DNA of 64,000 bases from Promethearchaeota archaeon (GCA_013375475.1 JABXKD010000001.1:1-64000); one strand, 5' to 3'; positions 1 to 14,057 are shown, counted from the first letter of the stretch. The notes: generated by a model not told the origin, from the sequence alone. Numbers and translations are program-made.

Positions 1-1
1 A

Positions 2-1357
2 AAAAACAAACTAGATGGGTACAAGTTCTACCCGTGGCTCAATCAAGACATGTTCGCTCCCATCGAGGATGAGCTATTCATAGATTTTGCCATCTACGGG
101 TTCGAGCAAAAAAGAAAGGGATTTAACTTCTATAAAGCGCTAGAAGAAAAGGTTCATGAGCTCAGGGGAATGAAAACCCTGATAACTCACAATTTCTACG
201 AGGAAGACTTGTTCTGGAAGATATATAACCAGGAATTTTACGATAAAGTGAAAGAACGAACGGATCCCAAGAACCTATTTCGAAACTTGTACGAAAAGAC
301 GAATTATAAGAAAAAGACTGAAAAAACTGAAAAGACGAAAAGACTGAAGGTAGGTATACCACGTTCCTTGTATTTCTACAAGTATTTTCCATTATGGGAA
401 GGTATGCTTACAAGTCTTGGTTGCGAAGTTATTGTGAGTCCAGAAACAAACAAAGAAATTCTTACAAACGGATCTAATCAATCTGCAACCGATTTATGCA
501 TTCCAGTCAAGATTCATTATGGTCACGTGAATTATTTATCGAGAAATCACCCCGATCTAGATTTTATATTTGTTCCAAGACTCATTAGTAGTAGTAAAGA
601 TCATTATTATTGTCCGAAATTCCTGATCCTTCCAGATGTCACTCAACACTCAGCAGTTTCTAATATTCCCGTTATTGAATGGATTTTTAATACCAGGGAA
701 CAATCAATGATGAAATCAGCAATAGATTTTGGAAAAACATTAGATAAATCAAAAGAAGAATCAAAACTTGCATACGAGAATGGAAATAAAAAACTTGAAG
801 AATTCCATGAGTTGATTGAGGATGGAATTCTTGTTCCTGATGCACTTTCCAAAATGTATCCTCTTGAAAAATATCCAAATTATAAGTTTAAGAAAAAATT
901 TCGGGCTAAACTTAACAAAGATTATGAAAATTATCCACTTTCATTAATGGTTCTTGGTCATCCATACAATACTTATGAATCAATTATTAATCATGGATTA
1001 ATGGATATTCTCAAATCTAATTTTGTTGATGTTGTAACTGTTGAAAATGCTCCAAAGGAAATCTTCTCAAGAAGAGTTGAAATTGATGATAATCTTTGCA
1101 ATTTCTGGGATAATGAAGATGAATTGATGCAATTATCTGATTACGTTATCAATAATAAAGAGATTGATGGGGGTATTTTCTTGATTTCCTTCGCATGTGG
1201 TCCTGATTCTTTAATTCAAGAATTGGTAATGCAAGACTTTGACATGAAAGATAAGCCTTATATAGATCTCACATTAGATGAACACACGGGAGAATCTCAA
1301 ATAACTACAAGAGTAGAATCTTTTGTCGAAATGATAAGGAGGAAGAAATACAAATGA
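2..1357 (+). CDS. 5'-partial fusion: C-terminus of a FAD-binding oxidoreductase (DHCR24/Rv3719-like) joined to a DUF2229 acyl-CoA dehydratase activase-related subunit
   Basis: Frame is open from base 2 (KNKLDGYKFYPWLNQDMF...). LEEKVHELRGMKTL..NFYEE..FW..Y...FYDKVK..TDP.NLFRNLYEK resembles the DHCR24-like C-terminus. A K/T/E linker is followed by KVGIPRSLYFYKYFPLW, LCIPVKIHYGHV, CPKF, GHPYN, SFACGPDS and LDEHTGE..ITTRVESF. Confidence 0.75.
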   Translation, partial: KNKLDGYKFYPWLNQDMFAPIEDELFIDFAIYGFEQKRKGFNFYKALEEKVHELRGMKTLITHNFYEEDLFWKIYNQEFYDKVKERTDPKNLFRNLYEKTNYKKKTEKTEKTKRLKVGIPRSLYFYKYFPLWEGMLTSLGCEVIVSPETNKEILTNGSNQSATDLCIPVKIHYGHVNYLSRNHPDLDFIFVPRLISSSKDHYYCPKFLILPDVTQHSAVSNIPVIEWIFNTREQSMMKSAIDFGKTLDKSKEESKLAYENGNKKLEEFHELIEDGILVPDALSKMYPLEKYPNYKFKKKFRAKLNKDYENYPLSLMVLGHPYNTYESIINHGLMDILKSNFVDVVTVENAPKEIFSRRVEIDDNLCNFWDNEDELMQLSDYVINNKEIDGGIFLISFACGPDSLIQELVMQDFDMKDKPYIDLTLDEHTGESQITTRVESFVEMIRRKKYK

Positions 1358-2385
1358 TTGAACCAGAATTTATCAAGAATATTCTTACAGATGATATGGA
1401 CGACAAGTTATTTCTAGGAATCGATGTCGGAAGTGTCTCCACGAAATGTGCAATAATTAATGAGAGAAATGAATTATTGTTTGCTACTTGGACCAGAAAT
1501 GATGGTTCTCCCATTGTTTCTACACAAGAAAATCTAAAATACATGGAAGAAGTCCTTCCCGATAACATTGAAAAAAGTATTTGTGGTGTTGGGACAACAG
1601 GTTCTGCTAGGTATTTAATAAAAGCTCTTATCGGTGCAGATGTAGCAAGACCTGAAATAATTGCTCATGCAATTGGGGCTTCAACTTATACCCCTGACGT
1701 GAGAACAATTCTTGAAATCGGGGGACAGGACAGTAAAGTTATATTGATGAAAAATGGCATCGTAACAGATTTTAACATGAATAGTGTTTGTGCTGCCGGA
1801 ACTGGCTCTTTTCTAGATCACCAAGCAGTTCGGATCAAGGTTCCAATTGAGGAATTTGGGGATTATGCTCTTCGGGCAGAAGAGGAGGTTTCAATCGCAG
1901 GACGATGCACAGTTTTTGCCGAATCTGATATGATCAGTAAACAACAAGAAGGGTATTCTAAAGAATCAATTATCAAGGGATTGTGTAAAGCTCTTGTTAG
2001 AAACTACTTGAATAATGTGTGCAAGGGTAAAAAACTGGAACCTCCTTTCGTATTCCAGGGAGGAGTCGCAGCTAATTCTGGAATAAAAAATGCTTTTGAA
2101 GAAGAATTGGGGCATGAAATCATTATTCATGAAAACTATTATGTGATGGGAGCATTTGGTTCAGCTATTTTGGCAAAGGAACATGTAAATGGACAGATAT
2201 CTTCTTTTCATGGCCTAAAAGTAAGTGAAATGAACTTGGCTCCAGGTTCTTTTGGCTGTGTTGATTGTGCAAATAGATGTACAATTAAATACCTTGTCAG
2301 ACAAGAAGATAAAAGTAGAGTAACTGGAAGAGAAAAGGATGATGCAATATTTGCGCGATGGAATAGTAGGTGCGGTAAATGGTAA
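1354..2385 (+). CDS. acyl-CoA dehydratase activase (HgdC/BadF-BcrA/D ASKHA ATPase, [4Fe-4S])
   Basis: GIDVGSVSTK, EIGGQDSK, MNSVCAAGTGSFLD, RCTVFAESD, FQGGVAAN; C-terminal CxxCxNxC...RCGKW; ATGA-type overlap with the upstream gene. Confidence 0.92.
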   Translation: MIEPEFIKNILTDDMDDKLFLGIDVGSVSTKCAIINERNELLFATWTRNDGSPIVSTQENLKYMEEVLPDNIEKSICGVGTTGSARYLIKALIGADVARPEIIAHAIGASTYTPDVRTILEIGGQDSKVILMKNGIVTDFNMNSVCAAGTGSFLDHQAVRIKVPIEEFGDYALRAEEEVSIAGRCTVFAESDMISKQQEGYSKESIIKGLCKALVRNYLNNVCKGKKLEPPFVFQGGVAANSGIKNAFEEELGHEIIIHENYYVMGAFGSAILAKEHVNGQISSFHGLKVSEMNLAPGSFGCVDCANRCTIKYLVRQEDKSRVTGREKDDAIFARWNSRCGKW

Positions 2386-3713
2386 ATGTTAGACTTGCAT
2401 TTTCACGCATGGGTTGGAGCTATATTTTTTTCAAAGGTTTATTCTATGATCTTCCTGGTATTGAAGTTGTTGAACCCCCTCTAGTAAACACTGAAATCGT
2501 TAGTGATGGAGTTAAAGTTTCTCCTGAATTCGTTTGCTTTCCTTTTAAAGTCATTCTTGGTGAAATGATAAACCTGTATCGTAATTATGATGTTAAAGAT
2601 TTTGCGATGATTGCTGACTACGGCCCCTGTCGAGCAGGAATCTATGCTGTTGTCCAGAAAAGAATCCTGAAAAACATGGGATTCAAAGATGTTAGTATGT
2701 TTTATCTGCGTCAAGATGATTTTAGAAATCTTGAATGGCTAAGGATATTTCGTGATTTAGAAGAAAGAACAGGAACAAAAATCGATGACTATAAAGTTGT
2801 AAGAAACACACTCTTGTTCTTGGTCAAAGCATACTATGTTGAAAGAATAACCCATATTGAAGGACTTGTTAGATGTCGAGAAAAAAACAAAGCGATGACT
2901 ACCAAAGTAGTTCATACTTTGATGAATTTACTTGATAACGAAAATAATTTGATGAAATTATCTAATTTTGAAAGAACGATTGATGAACATTTTCGCAAGA
3001 TTCCTATTGACAAGGAAATGGAACCTTTGAGGGTTTGTTATACTGGGGAAATCCAAGTCATGTTGGAGAAATGGGTTAATTATGATATGATGGGAGAATT
3101 AGGCGTTATGGGTATCGAGGTTCACAAGCAGTATGATGTTTTTGATTGGGTCATGTACAAACTTGACGCCAGCAAGCGAAGAAGACGGCTTGAACATAGT
3201 GCAAGAAAGTATATTCCAATGGATATAGGTGGTGAAGCAGTATGGAACATGGGAAGTTATCTTGAATCTCAAGGAAAAGGTTTTGATGGTTTTGTCCATG
3301 TATTCCCGTTTACTTGTCTCCCCGAAATATCCTTCATGGGAATGTTAGAAGCTGAGAAAAACATGGACAAGTTTTACATGCCCCACATTCATTTTAGTCT
3401 TGATGGAAGTTCAGGTTTCGAAGGACTTAGAACAAGAATCGAGGCGTTTCACGATTTAATGGTTGGCAACAAGAAATCTAATCCCTTGTTTAGAGATGTC
3501 AAGTATGAGGTCCCGGATGAAATAAAAAATATATATTTTAAGCCGAAATCCAATTTTGAATATTTCGTGTCTAGTATTAAAAAACCAATGTCAATAGTTT
3601 TAACAATGCTGAATCCATCAAAGAAATTAGACGTAGGATTCGCCGTTAAGAATGGACTCGAGTTTTTTTCAAGAAATTCGTTTTTTGGTATCGGATCTCT
3701 TTTTAAAAACTAA
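2379..3713 (+). CDS. DUF2229/2-hydroxyacyl-CoA dehydratase-like (PlsR-like) subunit
   Basis: SPEFVCFPFK, GPCRAGIY, TGEI, IGGEA, PFTCLPE, GLRTRIEAFHDL. Confidence 0.82.
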   Translation: MVNVRLAFSRMGWSYIFFKGLFYDLPGIEVVEPPLVNTEIVSDGVKVSPEFVCFPFKVILGEMINLYRNYDVKDFAMIADYGPCRAGIYAVVQKRILKNMGFKDVSMFYLRQDDFRNLEWLRIFRDLEERTGTKIDDYKVVRNTLLFLVKAYYVERITHIEGLVRCREKNKAMTTKVVHTLMNLLDNENNLMKLSNFERTIDEHFRKIPIDKEMEPLRVCYTGEIQVMLEKWVNYDMMGELGVMGIEVHKQYDVFDWVMYKLDASKRRRRLEHSARKYIPMDIGGEAVWNMGSYLESQGKGFDGFVHVFPFTCLPEISFMGMLEAEKNMDKFYMPHIHFSLDGSSGFEGLRTRIEAFHDLMVGNKKSNPLFRDVKYEVPDEIKNIYFKPKSNFEYFVSSIKKPMSIVLTMLNPSKKLDVGFAVKNGLEFFSRNSFFGIGSLFKN

Positions 3714-3767
3714 TTTACATGTTATTTCAATTATATAAATGAACATCTTGAAAGAGAGTTTAATTTA

Positions 3768-3812
3768 TCATACGATTGATAATCTGTTTATAATTGGTAA
3801 ATTTTTATTTTA
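3768..3812 (+). repeat. 45-bp direct repeat, copy A (TCATAC-N22-GGTAAATT-TTTATTTTA)
   Basis: tcatacgattgataatctgtttataattggtaaatttttatttta; 44/45 identical to copy C at 5643-5687. Confidence 0.9.
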
Positions 3813-3983
3813 AATTGTGTTCTTTTGTTTAAATAATCACTTAAGTAAAATAGGAAGTGTAAATATTACATTCCCCTTTGTCATTAAACCAATATAAATT
3901 AAATGGACATTTTAGTTAGAGCAATAGACATAAATGTAAGACGAAAAATTTAAATAGTGTTGGATGCTGAGGCTGAGCGTAAA

Positions 3984-4005
3984 TTTAAATATCATCTAAG
4001 ATGAT
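3984..4005 (+). promoter_or_regulatory. TATA-like box with adjacent 7-1-7 palindrome upstream of the 4045 gene
   Basis: TTTAAATA at 3984-3991 overlaps ATCATCT-A-AGATGAT (3991-4005), 40 bp before the ATG. Confidence 0.35.
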
Positions 4006-4044
4006 TGAGATTTAATGATAAAAATTTAGCAGTGAGGATATTTT

Positions 4045-5217
4045 ATGAATTCAAGATCTCGTCAAAATTTGCAGAAAATGTTTTTAATGTTGGTAATTTT
4101 ATGTCTGATTTTTCCATTGGGTAGTCTAGTTCTAAATACTCCAAGTTTCCAATCAAATAAATACACAGAAGAAGACCAGAGTGAAAAACTTCACATATCT
4201 GCTATGACTAATCTTAATCATGATGAGTGGGAAGAAACACATGGTTCAGCGAATGATTATATTTTCTGGAGCTTTTCTACTTCACCATCGCAGGTAATCA
4301 ATGTATGGGTATTAACTTCTTCTGAATATTCGTCTTTTATTTCTTCAGGTTTTGCTACAGGGTATCATCAAACAACGAGTGCTAGTGGTTCTGGTAGTTT
4401 TGATGTTTCTTCTTATTTGAAACAAACTTGGTACGTACTTTTTTGGAACGATGAATCTGGAAGTCAATCTACAACACTCTCTTATTTCGTTTATTTTCAT
4501 GATGATACACTCACACCCGATATAACCGTTACTGAGCCAACTTCTTCATCGAATTACGTAAGAGATAGAGATTATACTGTTAGATGGACAAGTATTAGTG
4601 CTGGAGTTGCCGTAAAAATTGAATTATTTAAAGAAAATTTATTTTATTCAACTTTAGTAACAAACACTCGCAATGATGGACAAGAACTTGTTCATATTCC
4701 CTCATCGTGTCTTGAGAGCTCTAATTATAGCATAAAAATAACCAGTATTTCGTATCCTGTTTTTGGTTTTAGTGCAAACTTTACAATCCAACCATATAAA
4801 TATTGTAGAGTTATTTCTCCAGATTTAGGTGAAGTTTATAAACCTGGAGATGTAATACCTATAACTTGGGAAACTAATTGCCAAAGTACAGAGGTAGAAA
4901 TTGAACTAAAAACATTTGATGATTGGGATTATATATATTATATTGATATGAATGCTCTTAATAATGGTAATTATAATTGGACTATTACAGCACAAGATTT
5001 ACCTGAGACTGAGAGGTGGTTTTTTATCACTGTTCGACCAACGGATTGTACCGCAAATATTACTGCTAGTAGGTTTTTTACAATACAAAAACCTCCTACA
5101 ATTCCTACAATTCCTAGTTATAATGTATCAATTGTAATTTGGACAGGAATTTGGATTACTATAGCAGCAATTATTTTTATAAAAAAGAAGTACCATAACA
5201 AATGTATTGTTATATAA
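4045..5217 (+). CDS. secreted, membrane-anchored surface protein with two Ser/Thr-rich Ig-like (Kre9/GPI-anchored family-like) domains and a Loki-CTERM-like tail
   Basis: N-terminal hydrophobic segment; two ITVTEP..Y.VRW / VISP..GEVY.PGD.I.ITW...NNGNYNW units; IPSY motif followed by a TM helix and KKK. Confidence 0.7.
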   Translation: MNSRSRQNLQKMFLMLVILCLIFPLGSLVLNTPSFQSNKYTEEDQSEKLHISAMTNLNHDEWEETHGSANDYIFWSFSTSPSQVINVWVLTSSEYSSFISSGFATGYHQTTSASGSGSFDVSSYLKQTWYVLFWNDESGSQSTTLSYFVYFHDDTLTPDITVTEPTSSSNYVRDRDYTVRWTSISAGVAVKIELFKENLFYSTLVTNTRNDGQELVHIPSSCLESSNYSIKITSISYPVFGFSANFTIQPYKYCRVISPDLGEVYKPGDVIPITWETNCQSTEVEIELKTFDDWDYIYYIDMNALNNGNYNWTITAQDLPETERWFFITVRPTDCTANITASRFFTIQKPPTIPTIPSYNVSIVIWTGIWITIAAIIFIKKKYHNKCIVI

Positions 5218-5358
5218 TATTAAACTAAGCTTAAACTCTCCACTAAAAGGTTTTATTTGGAATTTTTTTATTTTTTTTCTTTTTATTTGATACTTTAAAA
5301 CCTACCGCAGTCGAAGAAGTTGAGTAAAAAAGAGATGAATTAAGGAGTGTATAAACAT

Positions 5359-5403
5359 TCATACTTTTGCGATTATGTTTGAAATGGGTAAATTTATATT
5401 TTA
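5359..5403 (+). repeat. 45-bp direct repeat, copy B (diverged)
   Basis: tcatacttttgcgattatgtttgaaatgggtaaatttatatttta; ungapped 35/45 to copy A and 37/45 to copy D (hand count). Confidence 0.7.
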
Positions 5404-5642
5404 AATTTAGAAATAAATTTCTCAAATAGGATAGATTTTAGAATCTGGATATCGTGATCCATTAAACTCCTCTAAATAAATAAAATCTCGCAGATATTGT
5501 GAAATAACACCAAACTCTATAAAATTCGTCTTAAAACGCTCTAGCCCTTTCAAAGGATTATTAATAAATAAAGTTTTTATTATTAAGTAAAAAATTAGGC
5601 AGTAGAAATTATTAATCTTTACTGAGGTTTTTAATAAAAGAG

Positions 5643-5687
5643 TCATACGATTGATAATCTGTTTATAATGGGTAAATTTTTATTTTA
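5643..5687 (+). repeat. 45-bp direct repeat, copy C
   Basis: tcatacgattgataatctgtttataatgggtaaatttttatttta; one mismatch to copy A. Confidence 0.9.
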
Positions 5688-5753
5688 GAGTGAGTTATTT
5701 GATTTCATAGGTTTGATCAAATACTTGACTAGGTAAAATTTCTTAGAATTAAG

Positions 5754-6944
5754 ATGTTAATTTCCTTCCCTAATATGGGCCCCAATTGGGTCGCCTTTAA
5801 AACACTCTTTACAAGCCTTGATTTAGATGTGGTCGTTCCTGATCCCACAAATCGTGAGGCAATCAAAATCGGCGTTAAGCATTCTCCAGAGTTCGTTTGT
5901 TTTCCATTCAAGGCGACAATAGGGGATTTTGTAAACGCAATTGAGAAAGGAGCAGATACATTAGTCATGGCGATTGACTGTGGACCTTGTAGGTTCGGAT
6001 TTTATGCTTCCGTGCAGGAGAGAATTCTAAAGGATATGGGATATAAGAATATAACATTAATACCCCTTGACCAGGCCGACCTGCTTGAATTTCACTGGGT
6101 AAAAACCCTCCAAGAAGTAAGTGGTAGGAGAGATTTATTCATTTATTCTAAATTTGTAAAAGCAATCATCTTTTTCTTAAAAAAAGCCAAACTCTTAAAC
6201 GATATGCAGACAGCTGAGGGTGTGTTTCGAGCTTACGAGCGAAATCAAGGAGATACAACAAAGATTTTTATCAATTTGTTAACTAAACTTGACGAAGCTA
6301 ACACACTCCCAGAGCTGAGAAAATTCAAGAAGGTAATCAAAGAAGACTTTAATAGTCTCGATATTGATAAATCTCTAAGTCCTTTAAAGGTTGGACTTTC
6401 GGGTGAGATTCACATTAGTTTAGAACCTTATGTGAACCTTGATATTAGAAGGAAATTAGGTGAAATGCAAATTGAAATTCATCAATCTCTAAGCCTTTAT
6501 GATTGGGTTGTGCACAAATTTCACCTTAATTATCACAGAAAATGGTTGGAGCATCTTTCGCGTCCCTATATGCCCATGGACATTGGCGGTGAGGCGCAAT
6601 GGGTTTTAGGAGAATATATCGATAAGGCTCAAGCGGGTTTTGACGGCTTTGTACACGAATATCCGTTCTTGTGTATGCCAGAAGTGACTGCTCGAACCAT
6701 TATTACAAACAAGCTTAAAAAAATTTACGACCTTCCTATAATATATTTCTCTTTCGATGAACAGAGTGGTATGGAAGGATTCCGAACTCGTCTGGAAGCA
6801 TTTAGTGACTTAATGCATGGTCGTAGGAATAAAGAAATTAAAAATAATGCCAAATTTAAGTCAAATGGCAACAAAAAGATTTATCCTCACTACGGCGACA
6901 CTTTCTATAACGAGTGCTTTCAAATCATACAGAATTCGGCTTAA
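5754..6944 (+). CDS. DUF2229/2-hydroxyacyl-CoA dehydratase-like (PlsR-like) subunit, paralog of 2379-3713
   Basis: SPEFVCFPFK, CGPCRFGFY, SGEIH, MDIGGEA, PFLCMPE, FDEQSG.EGFRTRLEAF. Confidence 0.85.
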   Translation: MLISFPNMGPNWVAFKTLFTSLDLDVVVPDPTNREAIKIGVKHSPEFVCFPFKATIGDFVNAIEKGADTLVMAIDCGPCRFGFYASVQERILKDMGYKNITLIPLDQADLLEFHWVKTLQEVSGRRDLFIYSKFVKAIIFFLKKAKLLNDMQTAEGVFRAYERNQGDTTKIFINLLTKLDEANTLPELRKFKKVIKEDFNSLDIDKSLSPLKVGLSGEIHISLEPYVNLDIRRKLGEMQIEIHQSLSLYDWVVHKFHLNYHRKWLEHLSRPYMPMDIGGEAQWVLGEYIDKAQAGFDGFVHEYPFLCMPEVTARTIITNKLKKIYDLPIIYFSFDEQSGMEGFRTRLEAFSDLMHGRRNKEIKNNAKFKSNGNKKIYPHYGDTFYNECFQIIQNSA

Positions 6945-7167
6945 TTATTCTAAAATCATATTTCAAGGACAATTTTTATTGATATTTATTTTATCGGTTT
7001 TTTCTCATTCAATGATACTAAATTAAGACTAAAAAAGATATTATTCTGTTACAATTATTATAGGTTAGGAGAGAAATTAATATGCAACTGATTAATATAA
7101 ATTAATAGATAAAAATTTTCAATATAGGAAATAAGAAGGAGTAAAAAATTATAAGTATAGTAAACAC

Positions 7168-8904
7168 ATGATAACTAACATCATAATAAAAGGTTTTCGA
7201 GGTATTTCAAATAAATTAGAAATAAATCTTGAAAAAGAAAACCAGAAAAAATCCGCATCATTAATCATTTTTGGAGATAATGGAACAGGGAAGTCATCGA
7301 TAATTGATGCTATTGAAATTTGTCTTGTAGGCAAAATCAATAACAGAAGATTTCAATATTTAAAAACCAGATCTAATTCATATATAAATTTTAATCAGAA
7401 AGAATCAGAAATCATTATTGAATTGAATGATGGGAGTATCCATCACCAGATCATTAAGAAAGAAGAAAATAACACTATAGTATTAAGTTCGCTTCCACAT
7501 AAACTTTTTAGTTTAGCTCCTTTTATTTTAAGGAGATCAGACATTTTAAGATTTTGGAATACCCCTATGTATCGAAGACAAATTACAATATATAAATTCT
7601 TAAATAATATCTCTAAAAAAGAGGAGAAAATTGAAGAAATTGAATTGGAATGTTTAAAATTTGATAACGCTTTAAAGGAAATCCAAAAAGAAAATCTGGA
7701 TTTAATCTTAAATTTTAAGAGCATATGTAAGGTTGATGATGAGACACTAAAGAAAAAACATCATTCTTCTTCTTTTATGAGATTTATTGAGAAACATTAT
7801 GATTTCGAAAAAAAAATGTTAAAAGAAAAATCAATTTTTAAGAATATTGAAGGGATTGAAAAAAAAATTGAAATAGTATCTAATAAATTATCAGAAAATC
7901 AAAAAAAAATTGAAAAACTGAGAAAAAAAAGTAAGAAAATATTTTATATCTGGAGAGGAAAAAGACTTGCAAAAGATGAATTGGTTGAGGAATTAAATCA
8001 AATAGGAAAGTATGTCACTAAAGCATTCTTTAAAATTTTTAAAATATATGATTTCATAAGTGAAATTAAATTTATATTTGGGAAAAAGACTGAACGTTCA
8101 TTGCAGATTCTAGTTAGTACCAAAGATGGGATTATGTTTAATCCAACCGATTTTTTTAGTGAAGGTATGTTAGATTTAATATCTTTCCTAATTTTTCTAA
8201 GCTTAATAAAAAAATCTTCTGAAAGGGGGTTACCAAAAGTTTTAATAATTGATGATGCATTGAATAGTATTGACTCATCATTCCAGGTCCTATTAATGGA
8301 CTTTATTCTTAAGGAATTTTCTGATTGGCAGTTGATATTTGTGGTTCATAATCAACTATGGTTTGAGCAACTATCTCACTTATTTAATATAAATAAACAT
8401 AAATTTAAACAATTGGAACTTACTGATTGGTGTTATGATGATGGACCTTCATATATTACGGATATTGACTCAAGTTTGAGATCAAGTCTAAAAGATTGTT
8501 TATCTTCGGGTAATAATATAAAAATCTGTTCACTTTCGGGACTATTATTGGAAAAGAGTTGTCATGAATTGAGTTTTAGATTACCTATAAGTTTAATAAG
8601 AAAACAAAGAGATAAATATACTTTAGGTGATTTGTGGCCAAGTATTTACAAAAATTTAAAAAATACAAACCTAGAAAACATAATAAACTGCGTAAATATA
8701 TGGATAGTGACTCGGAACTTAATTGGAGCTCATTATAATAAATGGGCTTTGTCTCTCTCAAAGAATGAAGCGAAAGAATTTGGTGAATCAATATTAGCAT
8801 TATATGAATCAATCAAATGTGATCTTTGCTTCCGTTTCATTGAAATAGATACAAGTCTTGACAATAAGTGGAGATGCCGATGCGGAAATATAAAAATCTT
8901 TTAA
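7168..8904 (+). CDS. SMC/Rad50-like ABC ATPase with C-terminal HEPN-like domain and Zn finger (RloC-like, putative defence protein)
   Basis: IKGFRG, Walker A GDNGTGKS, coiled coil, FSEG signature, Walker B LIIDD, H-loop VVH, RNLIGAH (Rx5H), CDLC...CRC; very AT-rich. Confidence 0.7.
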   Translation: MITNIIIKGFRGISNKLEINLEKENQKKSASLIIFGDNGTGKSSIIDAIEICLVGKINNRRFQYLKTRSNSYINFNQKESEIIIELNDGSIHHQIIKKEENNTIVLSSLPHKLFSLAPFILRRSDILRFWNTPMYRRQITIYKFLNNISKKEEKIEEIELECLKFDNALKEIQKENLDLILNFKSICKVDDETLKKKHHSSSFMRFIEKHYDFEKKMLKEKSIFKNIEGIEKKIEIVSNKLSENQKKIEKLRKKSKKIFYIWRGKRLAKDELVEELNQIGKYVTKAFFKIFKIYDFISEIKFIFGKKTERSLQILVSTKDGIMFNPTDFFSEGMLDLISFLIFLSLIKKSSERGLPKVLIIDDALNSIDSSFQVLLMDFILKEFSDWQLIFVVHNQLWFEQLSHLFNINKHKFKQLELTDWCYDDGPSYITDIDSSLRSSLKDCLSSGNNIKICSLSGLLLEKSCHELSFRLPISLIRKQRDKYTLGDLWPSIYKNLKNTNLENIINCVNIWIVTRNLIGAHYNKWALSLSKNEAKEFGESILALYESIKCDLCFRFIEIDTSLDNKWRCRCGNIKIF

Positions 8905-9647
8905 ATTTAAATGCGGTATCTAACTCATGGATAGATATCAGGTTATGATTAAATCCGAAATAATTTTCGAATAAAAAAATCCTACTACTGATGAGGAGAT
9001 CGGTCAAAATAATGATAAAGTATGGAATGTATAAAGATTATATAAATATATATATATCCTTCCTAATTTAATAGAATATAAGGAGATTCAGATATTATTC
9101 AGAAATATTAATAATATTAGTGAATATTAATAATTTTGAAATGAACAGTGAAAACAGTATTAAAAAGGATATATATGAACCTTTAAATAAAGATTTATTA
9201 AAGTTTATTAAGTTTATTGCAGAGAAGACTAAATTTGATTATTAACTATTTTTATAATGGAATGATAAATATCGTTTATATCTGGCAAATTAGAACGTAT
9301 AAAATGGATTTTATCAAGGTAAACAATACTATTGTTTTCAAGGTCAATCTTTTGTAAGAGATTTTGATTTCTCTTTTATGTCTTTTATTATAAAATAGTC
9401 TTCCATTAAATATCTTCGAATTATAGATTTTAAGCTTGGTTTAAATTTGTTTTTATTTCTTTTCCATCACAATCAAATGCTTACTTACAACTTGTCTAAT
9501 AGTTAGGAGAATTTAGGCTACGAGTATTAACCTATGAGACTCTTTAAATATTTTTAACAATATTTATATATGAATTAATAATTTGTTGATGTATTGTGTA
9601 TTTTCATATGCACAAAATTACTAAGTAAAAAATTAAAGGTCAAAAAT

Positions 9648-11570
9648 ATGGAAAAAAAAAAATTTTATCTAGTATTATTGATATCAGCCATAATTGTAGG
9701 TTCTCTTGGCACAGTAATTATTATTTTAATAAGTTCAACTGAAATTCCTGAAGAAATTGATACAACAAACCCAAAAGTGCAATTAATTAGCCTTTCTAAT
9801 ACAACATATCATGAAACTATGTTATTACTGGAAATCAATGCAACTGACAACAAAGGAATAGATACAATATGGTATAACTGGAATGGTGAAGATGTTATTT
9901 GTAGTTCAGCACAATATGTTAAATTTAGAAATGGTTCAAATACAATATATGTATGGGCTAATGATTCTGCAGGAAATACTGGAAATGCATCAGTTACCTT
10001 CTCTATAGATACATTTTTTAACTCTGTATGGGATACTACATTAACAAGCTCAGGTTCGAGCTCTAGTAATCAAGTTGCATTACCATTGGAATCAACTGGA
10101 ATCTATAATTTTACAATTGATTGGGGTGATGGAAATAACGATACGATAATAAGCTGGAACCAATCAGAAGTAAATCATACATATACTTCAGAAGGCGTAT
10201 ATGATATTTCAATAAATGGGACAATCAATGGTTGGAGGTTTCATAATACTGGAGATAGATTAAAACTACTTGAGATTAAAGATTGGGGCTCATTACAATT
10301 AGGGAATCTTGGAAGTAATTTTTATGGATGTGCTAATCTAAGTCTTACTGCAACTGATAAACTAAATTTAAAAGGAACAACTACCTTAACTGATACATTT
10401 AGGGGATGCGAAAATTTGGGAAGTAATGGATATATGAACAATTGGGATTTGACTAATGTAATAAATTTAAGCTATATGTTTTATGGTACAACCACCTTTA
10501 GTCAGCCCATCGATAACTGGGATGTATCGAGTGTAACAATCATGGAGAGTATGTTCCATGGCGCTTCTTCTTTCAATCAAAATATTGGTAGCTGGGATGT
10601 TTCAAGCGTGACAACAATGGAGAATATGTTCCGTGATGCTTCTTCTTTCAATTATCATATTGGTAGCTGGGATGTTTCAAGCGTAACAACAATGGCGAGT
10701 ATGTTCCGTGGTGCTTCATCTTTCAATCAACCTATTGGTAGCTGGGACACCTCAAGCGTTACTACTATGCGTGCTATGTTTTTAGGTGCTTCTTCTTTCA
10801 ATCAACCTATTGGTAGCTGGGACATCTCAAGCGTTTCAGATATGCGTACTATGTTTTCTGGTGCCTCTTCTTTTAATCAACCGATTAGTGGCTGGAATGT
10901 CTCGAGTGTTGCAAATATGGCCGGTATGTTCTCTGGTGCTTCTTCCTTTAATCAATCTCTGGATAGTTGGAACGTCTCGAGTGTCACAAACATGGATGGT
11001 ATGTTCCAGGCTGCTTCATCATTTAACCAGCCCCTGAATAGTTGGAATGTTTCTAGGGTAACAGGCATGGAGGCCATGTTCCAAGGTGCTTCATCCTTTA
11101 ACCAACCCATCAATAACTGGGATGTCTCGAGTGTGACAGAAATGATTGTCATGTTCCATTATGCTTCATCCTTTAACCAACCCATCGATAGCTGGGATGT
11201 ATCAAGTGTTATAAGTATGGCTGCTATGTTCCAAGGTGCTTCATCCTTTAACAAAGACATTGGCAATTGGAACGTGTTGGGTGTAATAATTATGGCGAGT
11301 ATGTTCAGTGCAGCAACTTCCTTTGACCAAAACATTGGTAATTGGGATGTTTCAACCGTTAGTAATATGTGGGATATGTTTGAGGGGGTAACTTTATCAA
11401 CAACTAATTATGATAGTTTGTTAATTGGTTGGTCTCAATTAAATTTACAAAATGGCGTCACCTTTCATGGGGGTTATTCACAATATAGCTCAGGTGCCGC
11501 TACAACTGCAAGACAGAGTATTATAAATAATGATAGTTGGACTATTATAGATGGTGGACAAGTTCCGTAA
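9648..11570 (+). CDS. BspA-type/DUF285 repeat surface protein with N-terminal membrane anchor, Ig-like and PKD-like domains
   Basis: MEKKK plus a TM helix (ATG 9648 preferred to TTG 9594); DTTNP..ANDSAGN Ig-like unit; IDWGDG..HTY PKD-like unit; 13 [17 protein letters not shown] repeats; NYDSLLIGW...WTIIDGG C-cap. Confidence 0.88.
10437..11387 (+). repeat. intragenic tandem repeat, about 13 x 75 bp (25-aa DUF285 unit)
   Basis: recurring tggga(t/c)gt.tc.ag.gt ... atgttc ... gcttc.tc.tt.aa.ca with a 75-nt period. Confidence 0.9.
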
Positions 11571-11624
11571 ACAAATAATATAGTTGAAATAAAATTCTTT
11601 TTTTTTCTAATTTAAATGTTCTTT

Positions 11625-11669
11625 TCATACTATTGCGAGTTTGATTGTAATAGGTAAATTTTTATTTTT
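11625..11669 (+). repeat. 45-bp direct repeat, copy D (diverged; similarity to A and C extends to about 11710)
   Basis: tcatactattgcgagtttgattgtaataggtaaatttttattttt; 36/45 to copy A. Downstream taaatacttgtttaagcaaaatag matches A (taaataatcacttaagtaaaatag) and C (caaatacttgactaggtaaaat). Confidence 0.75.
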
Positions 11670-11741
11670 GAACGGATTATTCAATTAAATACTTGTTTAA
11701 GCAAAATAGATCATGGTTTTTTTTTTTACTTGAAAAATGGT

Positions 11742-11810
11742 AAAATCTATCCTCATTATGGGGATGTATTTTACAACGAATGTTATCAATTAATACAAAA
11801 TTCGGTTTAA
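11742..11810 (+). pseudogene. orphan 3' tail of a second allele of the 5754-6944 gene
   Basis: KIYPHYGDVFYNECYQLIQNSV* versus KIYPHYGDTFYNECFQIIQNSA* (6876-6944): 18/22 aa and 51/69 nt identical, same stop position. Confidence 0.9.
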
Positions 11811-11822
11811 TGGTTAGTATAA

Positions 11823-12848
11823 ATGGAAGATGTTATTGAAAAAGTAGTAAAAGAAGAAGATTTAAAGGATGCGTTCCTTGGAATTGACATAGGAAGCGTT
11901 AGTTGCAAATTTGTGTTAATGGATTCAGATGGGAATTTACTCACTAGCGTATTTTTACAAAATAGAGGTTCTCCCATCGATTCAGCAAAAGCAGGGATGG
12001 GTGAATTACGAGATAAAATAGAACAGAGTGAAAACTTACACGAGTATGCGATACGCTGTTGTGGGACAACTGGTTCTGCAAGGTATTTAACTAAAGCCAT
12101 CGTTGGTGCTGACCTCGCGAAAACTGAAATAATCGCTCATGCTGTTGCTGCCCAAACTCTGTATCCAGATGTTAGAACGATATTAGAAATTGGAGGTCAA
12201 GATTCGAAAATCATCCTTTTGCGAGATGGTATTATTGTAGATTTTGCTATGAATTCTATTTGCGCAGCTGGAACGGGATCGTTTCTCGATCACCAAGCAG
12301 CGCGACTTGGGATTGCCATAGAAGACTTTGGCGATTATGCTATAAAGTCAAAAAATCCAGTGAGTATTGCTGGAAGGTGCACGGTTTTTGCGGAATCTGA
12401 TATGATTCACAAACAAAACGCGGGTTATACAAAAGAAGATATAATTGCCGGATTATGTGATTCACTCGTTCGAAATTATATGAACAACGTTGGAAAGGGT
12501 AAAGATTTAGAAGAACCTATTGTCTTTCAGGGAGGAGTTTCGTATAATCAAGGAATTATAGAAGCTTTCGAAAGACACTTAGGTTGTAAGGTTATTGTTC
12601 CTAAATATAACGTATTGATGGGAGCTCTTGGAATGGCTATTCTCGTTCGAGATTATTATATAGAACACGAAGATGAGACAGAATTTAGAGGTCTTGAAGT
12701 AGCTGAAATCCAATTCACCACTTCAGCATTTAACTGTGGTGATTGCCCAAACAATTGCGAAATAGTCCAAGTAAAAATGCCTGAGTATGGAAATGAAGTA
12801 ATTGCTCGTTGGGGTTCACGATGTGGTAAGTGGGATCAATTAACTTAA
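11823..12848 (+). CDS. second acyl-CoA dehydratase activase (HgdC-like ATPase)
   Basis: GIDIGSVSCK, EIGGQDSK, MNSICAAGTGSFLD, RCTVFAESD, CGDCPNNC...RCGKW. Confidence 0.92.
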   Translation: MEDVIEKVVKEEDLKDAFLGIDIGSVSCKFVLMDSDGNLLTSVFLQNRGSPIDSAKAGMGELRDKIEQSENLHEYAIRCCGTTGSARYLTKAIVGADLAKTEIIAHAVAAQTLYPDVRTILEIGGQDSKIILLRDGIIVDFAMNSICAAGTGSFLDHQAARLGIAIEDFGDYAIKSKNPVSIAGRCTVFAESDMIHKQNAGYTKEDIIAGLCDSLVRNYMNNVGKGKDLEEPIVFQGGVSYNQGIIEAFERHLGCKVIVPKYNVLMGALGMAILVRDYYIEHEDETEFRGLEVAEIQFTTSAFNCGDCPNNCEIVQVKMPEYGNEVIARWGSRCGKWDQLT

Positions 12849-12879
12849 ATAATAATAAAAAAAGTAGAGGAATAAAACA

Positions 12880-13074
12880 ATGTCAGACTTTTTTAACCAA
12901 TTGAAGCACTTAGGTGAGGAATTTCTTGAGTCGCTTCAACATAAAACGAAATTATCAACAATTTTTGATATTTATTTAGAAAAAGTAATTCCTTCGTTTG
13001 TTTCCGAAAAAGACTTAAAGGAATATTACGAGAAACGGATGGAGGAAGTTAGTAATTTTATAGACAGATTATAA
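12880..13074 (+). CDS. small helical hypothetical protein
   Basis: GAGG RBS upstream; operonic spacing with both neighbours; amphipathic pattern. Confidence 0.7.
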   Translation: MSDFFNQLKHLGEEFLESLQHKTKLSTIFDIYLEKVIPSFVSEKDLKEYYEKRMEEVSNFIDRL

Positions 13075-13087
13075 AAGAGGGAATAAA

Positions 13088-13777
13088 ATGGTTGAAACAT
13101 CAACAGAAGAAAAAAAAACTGAAGGAAAAGATAAGGTAGTCAGTAAGGATTTGATGAAAGATATTCTATACGCAGCGGTCAAGGGTTTAGGAGGATTTGG
13201 CTTAGAAGCATTCGCTGATTTGAAGATTGAAGGCAGAGAAAACGTACCAATAAGAGGGAAAGCTATATTAACTACGATAAGTGATAATACTTTAAGAGAT
13301 TTAGCGATCATCAGTCAAGTTTCTGGTCGTAGAATTCATTTCATGGTTCATCATAAATTAATGAAGCATCAAGTGTATGGTCCTGTTCTTAAATCGTTAG
13401 GTATGTTCCGTAGCACTCTTGATAAAGACGATACTGTACCTATCGATAAAGTTTTCCATTATCTCAATGAGGTTGGGGACCTTGTAGCTATGACCCCAGA
13501 ATCGAAGCTTACACCAGAGGTTCAAGTAAAAGCAATGGCAGGTATTATTAAATTTGCAGTTGCAGCAATGGCTCCCATCATTCCGATAGCAATCTATACT
13601 GAAAAAGCGCGGATTTTAAATACAATTAAAACAACAGGTATAAGAGTGAAAATTGGAACTCCCCTTAAAGTAGAAAAACGATTAACTCGCGAAAAATATC
13701 GAGATGAGAGATACGAACTTGCTGAGGACATAATTAATATTATTGATTCCCTTAAAGTTCGACCAGAAGAAGAATAA
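13088..13777 (+). CDS. PlsC/lysophospholipid acyltransferase-fold protein with degenerate catalytic motifs
   Basis: IEGRENVP..GKAIL, IHFM, MTPESK (block III), APIIPIAI, IRVKIGTPL; HX4D replaced by SDNTLRD. Confidence 0.75.
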   Translation: MVETSTEEKKTEGKDKVVSKDLMKDILYAAVKGLGGFGLEAFADLKIEGRENVPIRGKAILTTISDNTLRDLAIISQVSGRRIHFMVHHKLMKHQVYGPVLKSLGMFRSTLDKDDTVPIDKVFHYLNEVGDLVAMTPESKLTPEVQVKAMAGIIKFAVAAMAPIIPIAIYTEKARILNTIKTTGIRVKIGTPLKVEKRLTREKYRDERYELAEDIINIIDSLKVRPEEE

Positions 13778-13793
13778 AAAAGAGGTAAAAAAA

Positions 13794-14057
13794 ATGGAAA
13801 ATAATCAAAATCCTGAATTGAATGAAATTGATAGCAGTTTGAAAGATCTCAATAAGCAACTTAAGCAGAGAAAAGAAGAGCTTATAAATGAGTTAAACGA
13901 CGTTAACGATTGTGAAGTTTGTTTGGAATCGGATAAGAAAATGAGCGAATTTATAGGAGATATCTTCTATAAATCTATGAAGAACTTATTTGATGTTGGT
14001 ACTAAGCTTGCTAAAAATTTAACACACGAATTTTTACCTGATAACGGGAATAAGTAA
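13794..14057 (+). CDS. small coiled-coil hypothetical protein with CxxC
   Basis: GAGGT RBS before ATG 13794; heptad pattern; CEVC. Confidence 0.65.
   Translation: MENNQNPELNEIDSSLKDLNKQLKQRKEELINELNDVNDCEVCLESDKKMSEFIGDIFYKSMKNLFDVGTKLAKNLTHEFLPDNGNK

Follow-up and report, generated by a model that had tools for sequence, protein, structure and literature searches.

The first 14,057 nt of the window, a 64-kb stretch that opens contig C111 of the Promethearchaeota archaeon assembly GCA_013375475.1 (genome of 3.9 Mb in 288 contigs), carry ten open reading frames (ORFs) on the plus strand, which, as judged from their sequences, include the genes of two paralogous three-component systems, each made up of an α subunit, a β subunit and an activase. 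Profile and alignment searches indicate that these components match, piece by piece, the Red1, Red2 and Act domains of fused PlsA/PlsR/Ger-type proteins. We give about an even chance to the reading that both systems are split radical enzymes of the DUF2229 branch of the BCR/2-hydroxyacyl-CoA dehydratase family, which would turn acyl-glycerolipid esters into ethers. An earlier note on this DNA had proposed a PlsA/PlsR- or Ger-like pathway encoded by five co-oriented genes in one operon. The architecture and the piecewise alignment bear out this likeness and all five genes are present, whereas the single operon with one five-subunit system gives way to two three-component paralogs with three genes between them.

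Subunits of the two systems

The subunit encoded at the very start of the window, termed α′, has an ORF open from base 2, the window part of which comprises 451 residues. It matches DUF2229 over profile positions 1-216 of 218 with 154.6 bits (cut-off 29.4; E 3.9e-45) and carries GIPRSLYFYKYFPLW at 353-397, in addition to an HGD-D match of 30.3 bits (cut-off 28.4; E 4.2e-07) that covers profile positions 263-342 only. Three cysteines, invariant across 50 α sequences, lie in the window segments 491-511, 605-622 and 1190-1210. The AlphaFold model of α′ has a mean predicted local distance difference test score of 93.7, and its best fold matches are HadBC, DCCP and BzdNO/MbdON (E 6.5e-9 to 3e-6, TM-scores of about 0.5-0.55). 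The best of these, the 2-hydroxyisocaproyl-CoA dehydratase HadBC (3O3N_B, E 6.5e-9, TM-score 0.55), is only 14-17% identical in the fold alignment, and differs in that HGD-D is partial or sub-threshold in the present proteins.

The two β subunits share 41% identity. β1 matches the N-terminal part of DUF2229 with an E value of 1.8e-05 (24.9 bits, below the cut-off of 29.4) and HGD-D with 0.0031, and β2 matches the same part of DUF2229 with 4.2e-10 (40.1 bits); on HGD-D they score 17.6 and 16.9 bits, under the cut-off of 28.4. Both carry GPCR.G and F.C.PE, and the three DUF2229/dehydratase-like genes named by the earlier note are all found with their motifs. Cys53, Cys84 and Cys313 (β1 numbering) are invariant in 67 of 67 split βs.

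The activases A and B, 52% identical to each other, match BcrAD_BadFG with 160.9 bits (E 5.9e-47) and 167.5 bits (E 5.6e-49), respectively, against a cut-off of 31.5; activase A also matches TIGR00241 (7.3e-56). The best sequence matches of activase B in the PDB are HadI (4EHT, 1.3e-37) and HgdC (1HUX, 3.5e-35). Activase A has its cluster cysteines at 1786-1812 and 1900-1929 and a four-cysteine tail at 2257-2280 and 2365-2382, and activase B ends in a CxxCxNxC...RC tail at 12735-12758 and 12816-12833, as had been claimed for both. A regular expression recovers this tail in 54 of 55 split activases, and the 55th, an N-truncated ORF, shows it as well. The tail, of about 70 residues, reaches beyond the region aligned to the HadI and HgdC chains of 270-276 residues.

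Correspondence to fused PlsA- and Ger-type enzymes

Enterococcus and Lactococcus possess a single fused PlsA. The fused PlsA forms are described as having the domains Act1, Act2, Red1 and Red2, and C. perfringens as having two genes, plsA-plsR, of about 4.2 kb together (PMC12838417). In E. coli, Ger of T. maritima, with the domain string BBDHDDH (PF01869, PF09989, PF06050), is reported to turn sn-1 esters into alkyl ethers (PMC13159169).

BLAST comparison was made with 17 fused or semi-fused proteins of the PlsA/Ger type, 927-1470 residues long. The alignment of α′ covers about residues 616-1140 of the fused proteins (22-27% identity, E down to 3e-23), whereas β1 and β2 align to about residues 945-1440 (about 1039-1438 for β1; 20-25% identity, E down to 3.9e-17). 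The activases align to both N-terminal ATPase domains together with the following linker, with 34-47% identity to the better-matching one. In an alignment of 12 fused proteins, the four near-invariant cysteines of this linker coincide with the CxxCxNxC...RC tail of the split activases, and the invariant cysteines of the αs and βs match invariant cysteines in Red1 and Red2.

Set against the published description of C. perfringens PlsA/PlsR, the architecture has the same modules, namely a pair of activase units, one DUF2229 Red1 unit and one Red2/PlsR unit, and the cysteines are conserved whether the modules are split or fused. It differs in that each module here has its own gene, with one activase gene per system, and in that one α bears a flavin domain and PlsC genes are adjacent. 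The BBDHDDH domains of Ger (Thermotoga maritima Tmari_0479, Desulfatibacillum alkenivorans SHJ90043) likewise correspond to activase, α and β, but are joined in one chain of about 1400 residues, which is described as giving saturated ethers on its own (PMC13159169).

The split form is common: a homology search retrieved 2539 cluster representatives at E≤1e-3, of which the best 150 are mostly stand-alone proteins of about 330 residues, with a few α-β fusions of 690-770 residues among them. A profile of the 12 fused proteins gave 7981 matches; among the 120 listed, few are named and none comes from an organism with a verified enzyme.

Acyltransferase genes beside the α subunits

In relatives, the stand-alone α is preceded by a protein of 550-580 residues with two PF01553 domains (180.7 bits), which in turn is preceded by a HAD hydrolase. 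This tandem PlsC has HX4D in both domains and scores 151 bits on TIGR00530 (cut-off 102.95), and its sole PDB match is T. maritima PlsC (5KYM). Loci of α were collected from the phylum sample as well as from named genome records, and an 11-sequence alignment served for the locus scan. A PlsC-family ORF lies within 4 kb on the same strand at 58 of 59 distinct stand-alone αs (loci L042-L062 and L072-L125), the lone exception being on a Bathyarchaeota-labelled contig; none was found near the 33 αs of a second Asgard clade and bacteria. Because these loci are kin, the count of 58 in 59 overstates their independence, and the better argument comes from the number of distinct gene arrangements, which is five. 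The first is HAD-2xPlsC-α-β-activase-PlsC-like and the second PlsC-PlsC-α-β-activase. The third, PlsC308-α-β-activase, is that of the cultured Promethearchaeum syntrophicum MK-D1 (L114). In the fourth, on Helarchaeota-labelled contigs, a three-domain PlsC of 872 residues and a HAD protein of 490 residues stand before α-β-activase, and the fifth is PlsC309-α-activase-β on a Woesearchaeota-labelled contig (L118). Acyltransferase genes are strongly conserved beside the system across Asgard lineages; the opposite outcome, a PlsC-fold gene not conserved next to the operon, was one that the earlier note had named as contrary to its proposal.

Further genes occur near the operon in some relatives. 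A 4HBT thioesterase of 147 residues directly precedes the tandem PlsC in one of them, and ORFs of 147 residues occupy the same place in two more. At L080 (1263-5387), an AMP-binding enzyme (562 residues) and a pyruvate-formate-lyase-like glycyl radical enzyme (786 residues) lie upstream of HAD-PlsC-α, as found in one group of relatives; ORFs of 786 residues are seen at the equivalent place in three further loci. The second Asgard-only α-β-activase clade (L063-L071 and L152), which includes a second set of P. syntrophicum, has a PlsC neighbour in 0 of 10 cases.

A quick IQ-TREE tree was built from 82 α/Red1 rows, in which the fused rows are unnamed proteins. All 22 PlsC-adjacent clusters fall together with α′ in one clade of 26, with a support of 100 in the SH-like approximate likelihood-ratio test (SH-aLRT). 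Within it, α′ is sister to the PlsC309-linked α of L118 (SH-aLRT 100). L118 provides the best match of all three system 2 genes (57, 66 and 56%) and shares with system 2 the order α-activase-β; it is therefore the closest relative of this gene set, and its PlsC gene stands where system 2 has the flavin domain.

The gene at 13088-13777 corresponds to the PlsC-fold gene that the earlier note had placed after the operon. It is indeed there (PF01553 31 bits, cut-off 23), but the catalytic histidine of HX4D is gone: it is replaced by D, K or E in each of 12 PlsC-like orthologs, motif III is reduced to PE, and the score on TIGR00530 is 31.4 bits, short of the cut-off of 102.95. On these sequence features, the most fitting description of its product is a degenerate acyltransferase-fold protein; speculatively, it might bind lipid without catalysis. 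Twelve distinct activase B orthologs are followed by this gene, which is the last in the operon of system 1 to look like an enzyme gene. The earlier note had taken this acyltransferase-fold neighbour as favouring a lipid substrate; the neighbour is degenerate, and the stronger evidence for such a substrate is provided by the tandem PlsC that lies outside the contig. The following small ORF, read as 13794-14057, has counterparts of 63-71% identity at the equivalent place in two loci of the same genus, in addition to matches of 49%, 47% (over 38 residues only) and 34% in three other loci.

Gene layout and insertion of system 2

All three genes of system 2 lie within the window, α′ being cut at its 5′ end, whereas system 1 is represented by its downstream half only (Table 1). 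The genes of system 2 overlap by 4 nt (α′ and activase A) and 7 nt (activase A and β1).

Table 1. Plus-strand ORFs in the first 14,057 nt of the window
Feature	Position	Strand	Assignment
α′ (FAD-α′, system 2)	2-1357	+	DUF2229 154.6 bits and HGD-D C-terminal piece; 5′ end cut by contig start
Activase A (system 2)	1354-2385	+	BcrAD_BadFG
β1 (system 2; Red2/PlsR-like)	2379-3713	+	Weak DUF2229 N-terminal part and HGD-D
Inserted gene	4045-5217	+	Kre9/KNH-type Ig domain
β2 (system 1; β1 paralog)	5754-6944	+	Weak DUF2229 N-terminal part and HGD-D
Inserted gene	7168-8904	+	SMC/ABC-type ATPase
Inserted gene	9594-11570	+	DUF285/PARCEL repeat protein (surface protein)
Activase B (system 1)	11823-12848	+	BcrAD_BadFG
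PlsC-like gene (system 1)	13088-13777	+	PF01553 31 bits
Small ORF (system 1)	13743-14057 (13794-14057 from internal Met, 87 aa)	+	Weak CdvA-like coiled coil

In L044, a locus of the same genus, a single strand carries the tandem PlsC, the stand-alone α, FAD-α′, activase A, β1, β2, activase B and the PlsC-like gene, and the three inserted genes of the window are missing. The cassette FAD-α′-activase A-β1 occurs alone in unrelated surroundings in L045, L046 and L049, from two other genera, with proteins 85-94% identical to those of the window. Conversely, L050, L058 and L061 possess the compact operon HAD-tandem PlsC-α-β2-activase B-PlsC-like without the cassette. These layouts together indicate that system 2 is a cassette put between the α and the β2 of system 1 in the host genus. 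In relatives, the α of system 1 and its true acyltransferases sit upstream of the position at which the contig starts, β2 orthologs (66-93% identity) follow the stand-alone α, and activase B directly follows β2, the last also in one RNA-library contig. A tblastn search of the whole assembly for the α of system 1, the tandem PlsC, the HAD protein and a 469-residue PlsR-like protein returned nothing besides α′.

Some Lokiarchaeal genomes also contain a gene of 974-985 residues with the domains Act-Act-DUF2229 (865 residues in L082), accompanied by a β-like gene of 462-474 residues with no Pfam match. This pair, which shares the two-gene layout of clostridial plsA-plsR, lies between the stand-alone α and the cassette (L042 14975-19335, minus strand; L048 9019-13404, plus strand; eight named loci). 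In L047, of the same genus as the window, short α-like ORFs of 207, 140 and 92 residues flank the cassette (1640-2263 and 7147-7780); they are 36-64% identical to parts of α′ and look like remnants of further α paralogs. Regarding the inserted genes, the N-terminus of the ATPase at 7168-8904 matches models of the defence systems PtuA, LmuB and AriA (E down to 7e-15).

Four metatranscriptome libraries from four studies contain contigs that are 90-99% alike and span positions 1-3700 of the window. One RNA-library contig of 2715 nt carries β2, passes directly from 6890 to 11757 and continues up to 13340 through activase B and into the PlsC-like gene; close relatives therefore exist without the 4.9-kb insertion that holds the genes at 7168-8904 and 9594-11570. 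The contigs leave 3761-5640 and 7051-9870 uncovered, and these gaps are uninformative on expression because both stretches are strain-specific insertions. The contigs record the presence of the genes in RNA libraries, which by itself does not prove transcription.

The flavin domain of α′

The window keeps only the last ~112 residues of a flavin adenine dinucleotide (FAD) domain, because the contig begins inside the gene, and its N-terminal 115-residue fragment alone gave no Pfam match at E≤10. The fusion of a FAD domain to the first subunit, as the earlier note had read it, is nevertheless real: three full-length relatives (P0007-P0009; 803-815 residues, 87-95% identical to the α′ residues) combine FAD_binding_4, DUF2229 and HGD-D, with 54-56.7 bits for FAD_binding_4 (cut-off 26.4). 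Full-length copies of FAD-α′ were found in 6 of 201 phylum genomes searched. A near-identical match occurs in 19 genomes, in 13 of which the gene is cut by a contig end, mostly within the first ~130 codons; a cassette in differing contexts among co-assembled strains would fit this frequent truncation. As a source of the missing 5′ end we rejected contig C215, on which a complete GlcD-like gene lies near the contig end; the genome has eight FAD_binding_4 loci.

Homology search with the flavin part (residues 1-455 of a full-length relative) gave 617 matches at E≤1e-5, led by stand-alone proteins of about 445 residues with 45-62% identity. First among these is a Sigynarchaeota record, and others come from Deltaproteobacteria and further bacteria. 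The FAD domain keeps 77 of the 80 invariant columns of this family, including all 17 that the window fragment covers. Its nearest Atlas clusters are automatically named Delta(24)-sterol reductase (score 0.97), names that are database labels. P0331 of Anaeramoeba flamelloides, a 563-residue protein with the source name 24-dehydrocholesterol reductase, is 56% identical over 98% of the FAD domain. This protein of an anaerobic protist is nearer than most bacterial homologs, and the longest contig of its record measures 16 Mb. The likeness to the DHCR24 family consists in the 77 of 80 columns and the sterol-reductase-named relatives; the domain here differs in being fused to an Fe-S subunit, and no sterol pathway is implied. 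Solved structures match the FAD-binding part only, with cytokinin oxidases first (2.9e-19). An AGPS-like ether synthase was considered for this domain, at 8.7e-5 against 2.9e-19 for the cytokinin oxidases, and set aside because the whole-domain relatives bear Delta(24)-sterol reductase names.

The stand-alone flavoprotein family was also scanned on metagenome contigs. Among 80 loci, 73 have a gene of stand-alone size, and for 45 of them the contig extends 1 kb or more upstream. The gene directly upstream on the same strand is PlsA/Ger-like in 12 of these 45; it is complete in four loci (1421-1435 residues) and otherwise truncated by the start of the contig. In one of the 12, this gene is a truncated fused form from Lokiarchaea, and a stand-alone α lies 1.6 kb upstream; the remaining 11 of 44 lie on GC-rich, bacterial-type contigs, where the gap between the fused gene and the flavoprotein gene is -3 to 47 nt. 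The fusion in archaea and the operon neighbourhood in bacteria are two separate signs that the flavoprotein works with PlsA/Ger-type enzymes. The enzyme that converts vinyl to alkyl ethers is named as an open point, as yet unknown, in a 2026 paper (PMC13274423). Our literature search, with supplements and most subscription journals outside its reach, found no report of a vinyl ether reductase or of plsA with a DHCR24-like flavoprotein.

Proposed function and alternatives

Enzymes of this family rely on an activase dimer bridged by a [4Fe-4S] cluster; at the expense of ATP, it reduces the cluster of the catalytic subunits and so starts ketyl-radical chemistry on a carbonyl. The modules, the cysteines, the match to the fused enzymes and the fold, as read from the sequences and the fold model, are consistent with the same division of labour here. 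The Red1-like α would hold one [4Fe-4S] cluster by its three cysteines, the Red2/PlsR-like β would contribute three more cysteines, and the HgdC-type activase dimer would use ATP to drive a low-potential electron into α-β. The substrate would be a glycerolipid acyl ester supplied by the co-encoded PlsC-type acyltransferases (in relatives the tandem PlsC and the HAD phosphatase), and the ester would be reduced and dehydrated to a vinyl or alkyl ether in the manner of PlsA/PlsR and Ger. In system 2, the fusion and the bacterial gene neighbourhood suggest, as the most likely role of the DHCR24-like domain, that it may reduce the C=C bond of the vinyl-ether intermediate to give a saturated alkyl ether; C=C reductase activity as such is suggested by the database names of its relatives. 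The wider proposal, in which this module would be the missing vinyl-ether-saturating enzyme, an Asgard route would run through acylation, radical ester reduction and flavin saturation, and DHCR24 would be kin to ether-lipid reductases, appears rather unlikely at present.

Several points weigh against ester-to-ether conversion. We know of no split α-β-activase system with a known product. α and β are only 20-27% identical to the fused PlsA/Ger-type proteins, the comparison was made with unnamed proteins instead of experimentally verified PlsA, PlsR and Ger, and in the tree the 22 fused rows group together (SH-aLRT 100), opposite to the split αs. The split systems of bacteria, at 35-40% identity, have only housekeeping neighbours. 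In this assembly, the sole PlsC-family match is the degenerate one, and the sole match to PlsY (PF02660) is an open frame of 73 residues (C155:45788-45952, profile positions 1-56), which may be a fragment or an assembly-cut gene; a GGGP synthase is present. Kyte-Doolittle analysis found no transmembrane segment in α′, β1, β2, activase A or two PlsC proteins, and one hydrophobic stretch of 19 residues each in activase B and the PlsC-like protein, with no clear membrane anchor. PlsA and Ger are moreover described as indistinguishable by sequence in the 2026 paper (PMC13274423). As to the flavin step, Ger by itself is reported to yield saturated ethers in E. coli (PMC13159169); known systems can therefore do without a separate vinyl-ether reductase. 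The PlsC-α-β-activase operon, the second α-β-activase set and a fused homolog of 1419 residues are all present in P. syntrophicum. Ether cleavage of its lipids is reported to have released only phytane and biphytanes, that is, isoprenoid chains (PMC7015854), and its genome is described as lacking ester-lipid genes (PMC7015854, PMC11316595).

Among the alternatives, a different chemistry on acyl lipids survives best, although we hold it to be unlikely. The systems would either run in the catabolic direction, opening ether or plasmalogen lipids that have been scavenged while the flavin domain desaturates alkyl ethers, or reduce or dehydrate another lipid oxygen function, and PlsC would re-acylate the product. 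The context of PlsC, HAD and thioesterase genes points to lipids and leaves both the reaction and its direction unfixed; the VAO-type PDB matches of the FAD domain are mostly oxidases or dehydrogenases, and no n-alkyl ethers were reported for P. syntrophicum (PMC7015854). However, the sole characterised members of the DUF2229 branch are described as making ethers from esters (PMC13159169, PMC12838417). The reductive direction is also favoured by the activases, which are homologous to those of HadI/HgdC-type systems, where ATP-dependent activases start reductive radical chemistry.

A still smaller probability goes to acyl-CoA or thioester dehydratases or reductases, such as those of amino-acid fermentation, whose modified acyl-CoA the neighbouring acyltransferases would use. 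The fold and the activases found here are of the HadBC/HadI and HgdC kind, some relatives have genes for an AMP-binding enzyme or a 4HBT thioesterase close to the operon, and Asgard archaea are described as fermenting amino acids (PMC7015854). However, neither α′ nor the βs have a full-length HGD-D or reach an equivalog model of the 2-hydroxyacyl-CoA dehydratases: the HGD-D matches are partial or below the cut-off, and the score on the HadC equivalog is 19.4 bits, where 700 would be needed. The α profile meets the solved dehydratase sequences only over its last ~70 C-terminal positions, and no CoA-transferase is found among the annotated neighbours, although no search was aimed at one. By these model scores, with HGD-D, HadC and DCCP all weak, the subunits do not fall with the classical 2-hydroxyacyl-CoA dehydratases, the outcome that the earlier note had named as contrary to its proposal.

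General ATP-dependent low-potential reductases of small molecules, DCCP-like and with an incidental or regulatory PlsC linkage, are the least probable candidates and very doubtful. In their favour, DCCP (7YYL, 6ENO) ranks high among both the sequence and the fold matches, and bacterial split systems lack informative neighbours. Against them, the NCBIfam double-cubane model scores 19.2 bits against 350, each subunit has three instead of six invariant cysteines, and the PlsC adjacency recurs across five gene arrangements.

Implications for Asgard lipids

Homologs of Ger in Lokiarchaeota, including P. syntrophicum, and in Heimdallarchaeota, together with their bearing on the lipid divide, have already been published, with archaeal matches reported at e≤1e-50 and 30% coverage (PMC13159169); these may be of the fused 1419-residue type also present in P. 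syntrophicum. Scattered PlsC and PlsY genes of Lokiarchaeota are likewise published (PMC6737245). In a literature search of the scope given above, with supplements and most subscription journals outside it, we did not find the split PlsC-linked clade, the flavin fusion or the flavoprotein-PlsA neighbourhood. What the present analysis adds is that the acyltransferases and the PlsA-like reductase, earlier listed separately, belong to one conserved gene cluster.

The occurrence of this cluster in five arrangements and in a cultured strain makes the idea accessible to expression experiments and targeted lipidomics. Should the wider proposal given above hold, fatty-alkyl glycerol ethers would be made in Asgard archaea, including P. 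syntrophicum, by an ester-to-ether route that bridges bacterial and archaeal membrane chemistry, and eukaryotic DHCR24 would be related to a prokaryotic family of ether-lipid reductases. A capacity of Asgard archaea to make or remodel fatty-acyl lipids would bear on how the archaeal host gained bacterial-type membranes, and the two systems provide candidates, open to testing, for the genes behind ether lipids of the bacterial kind in those archaea that are most closely related to eukaryotes.

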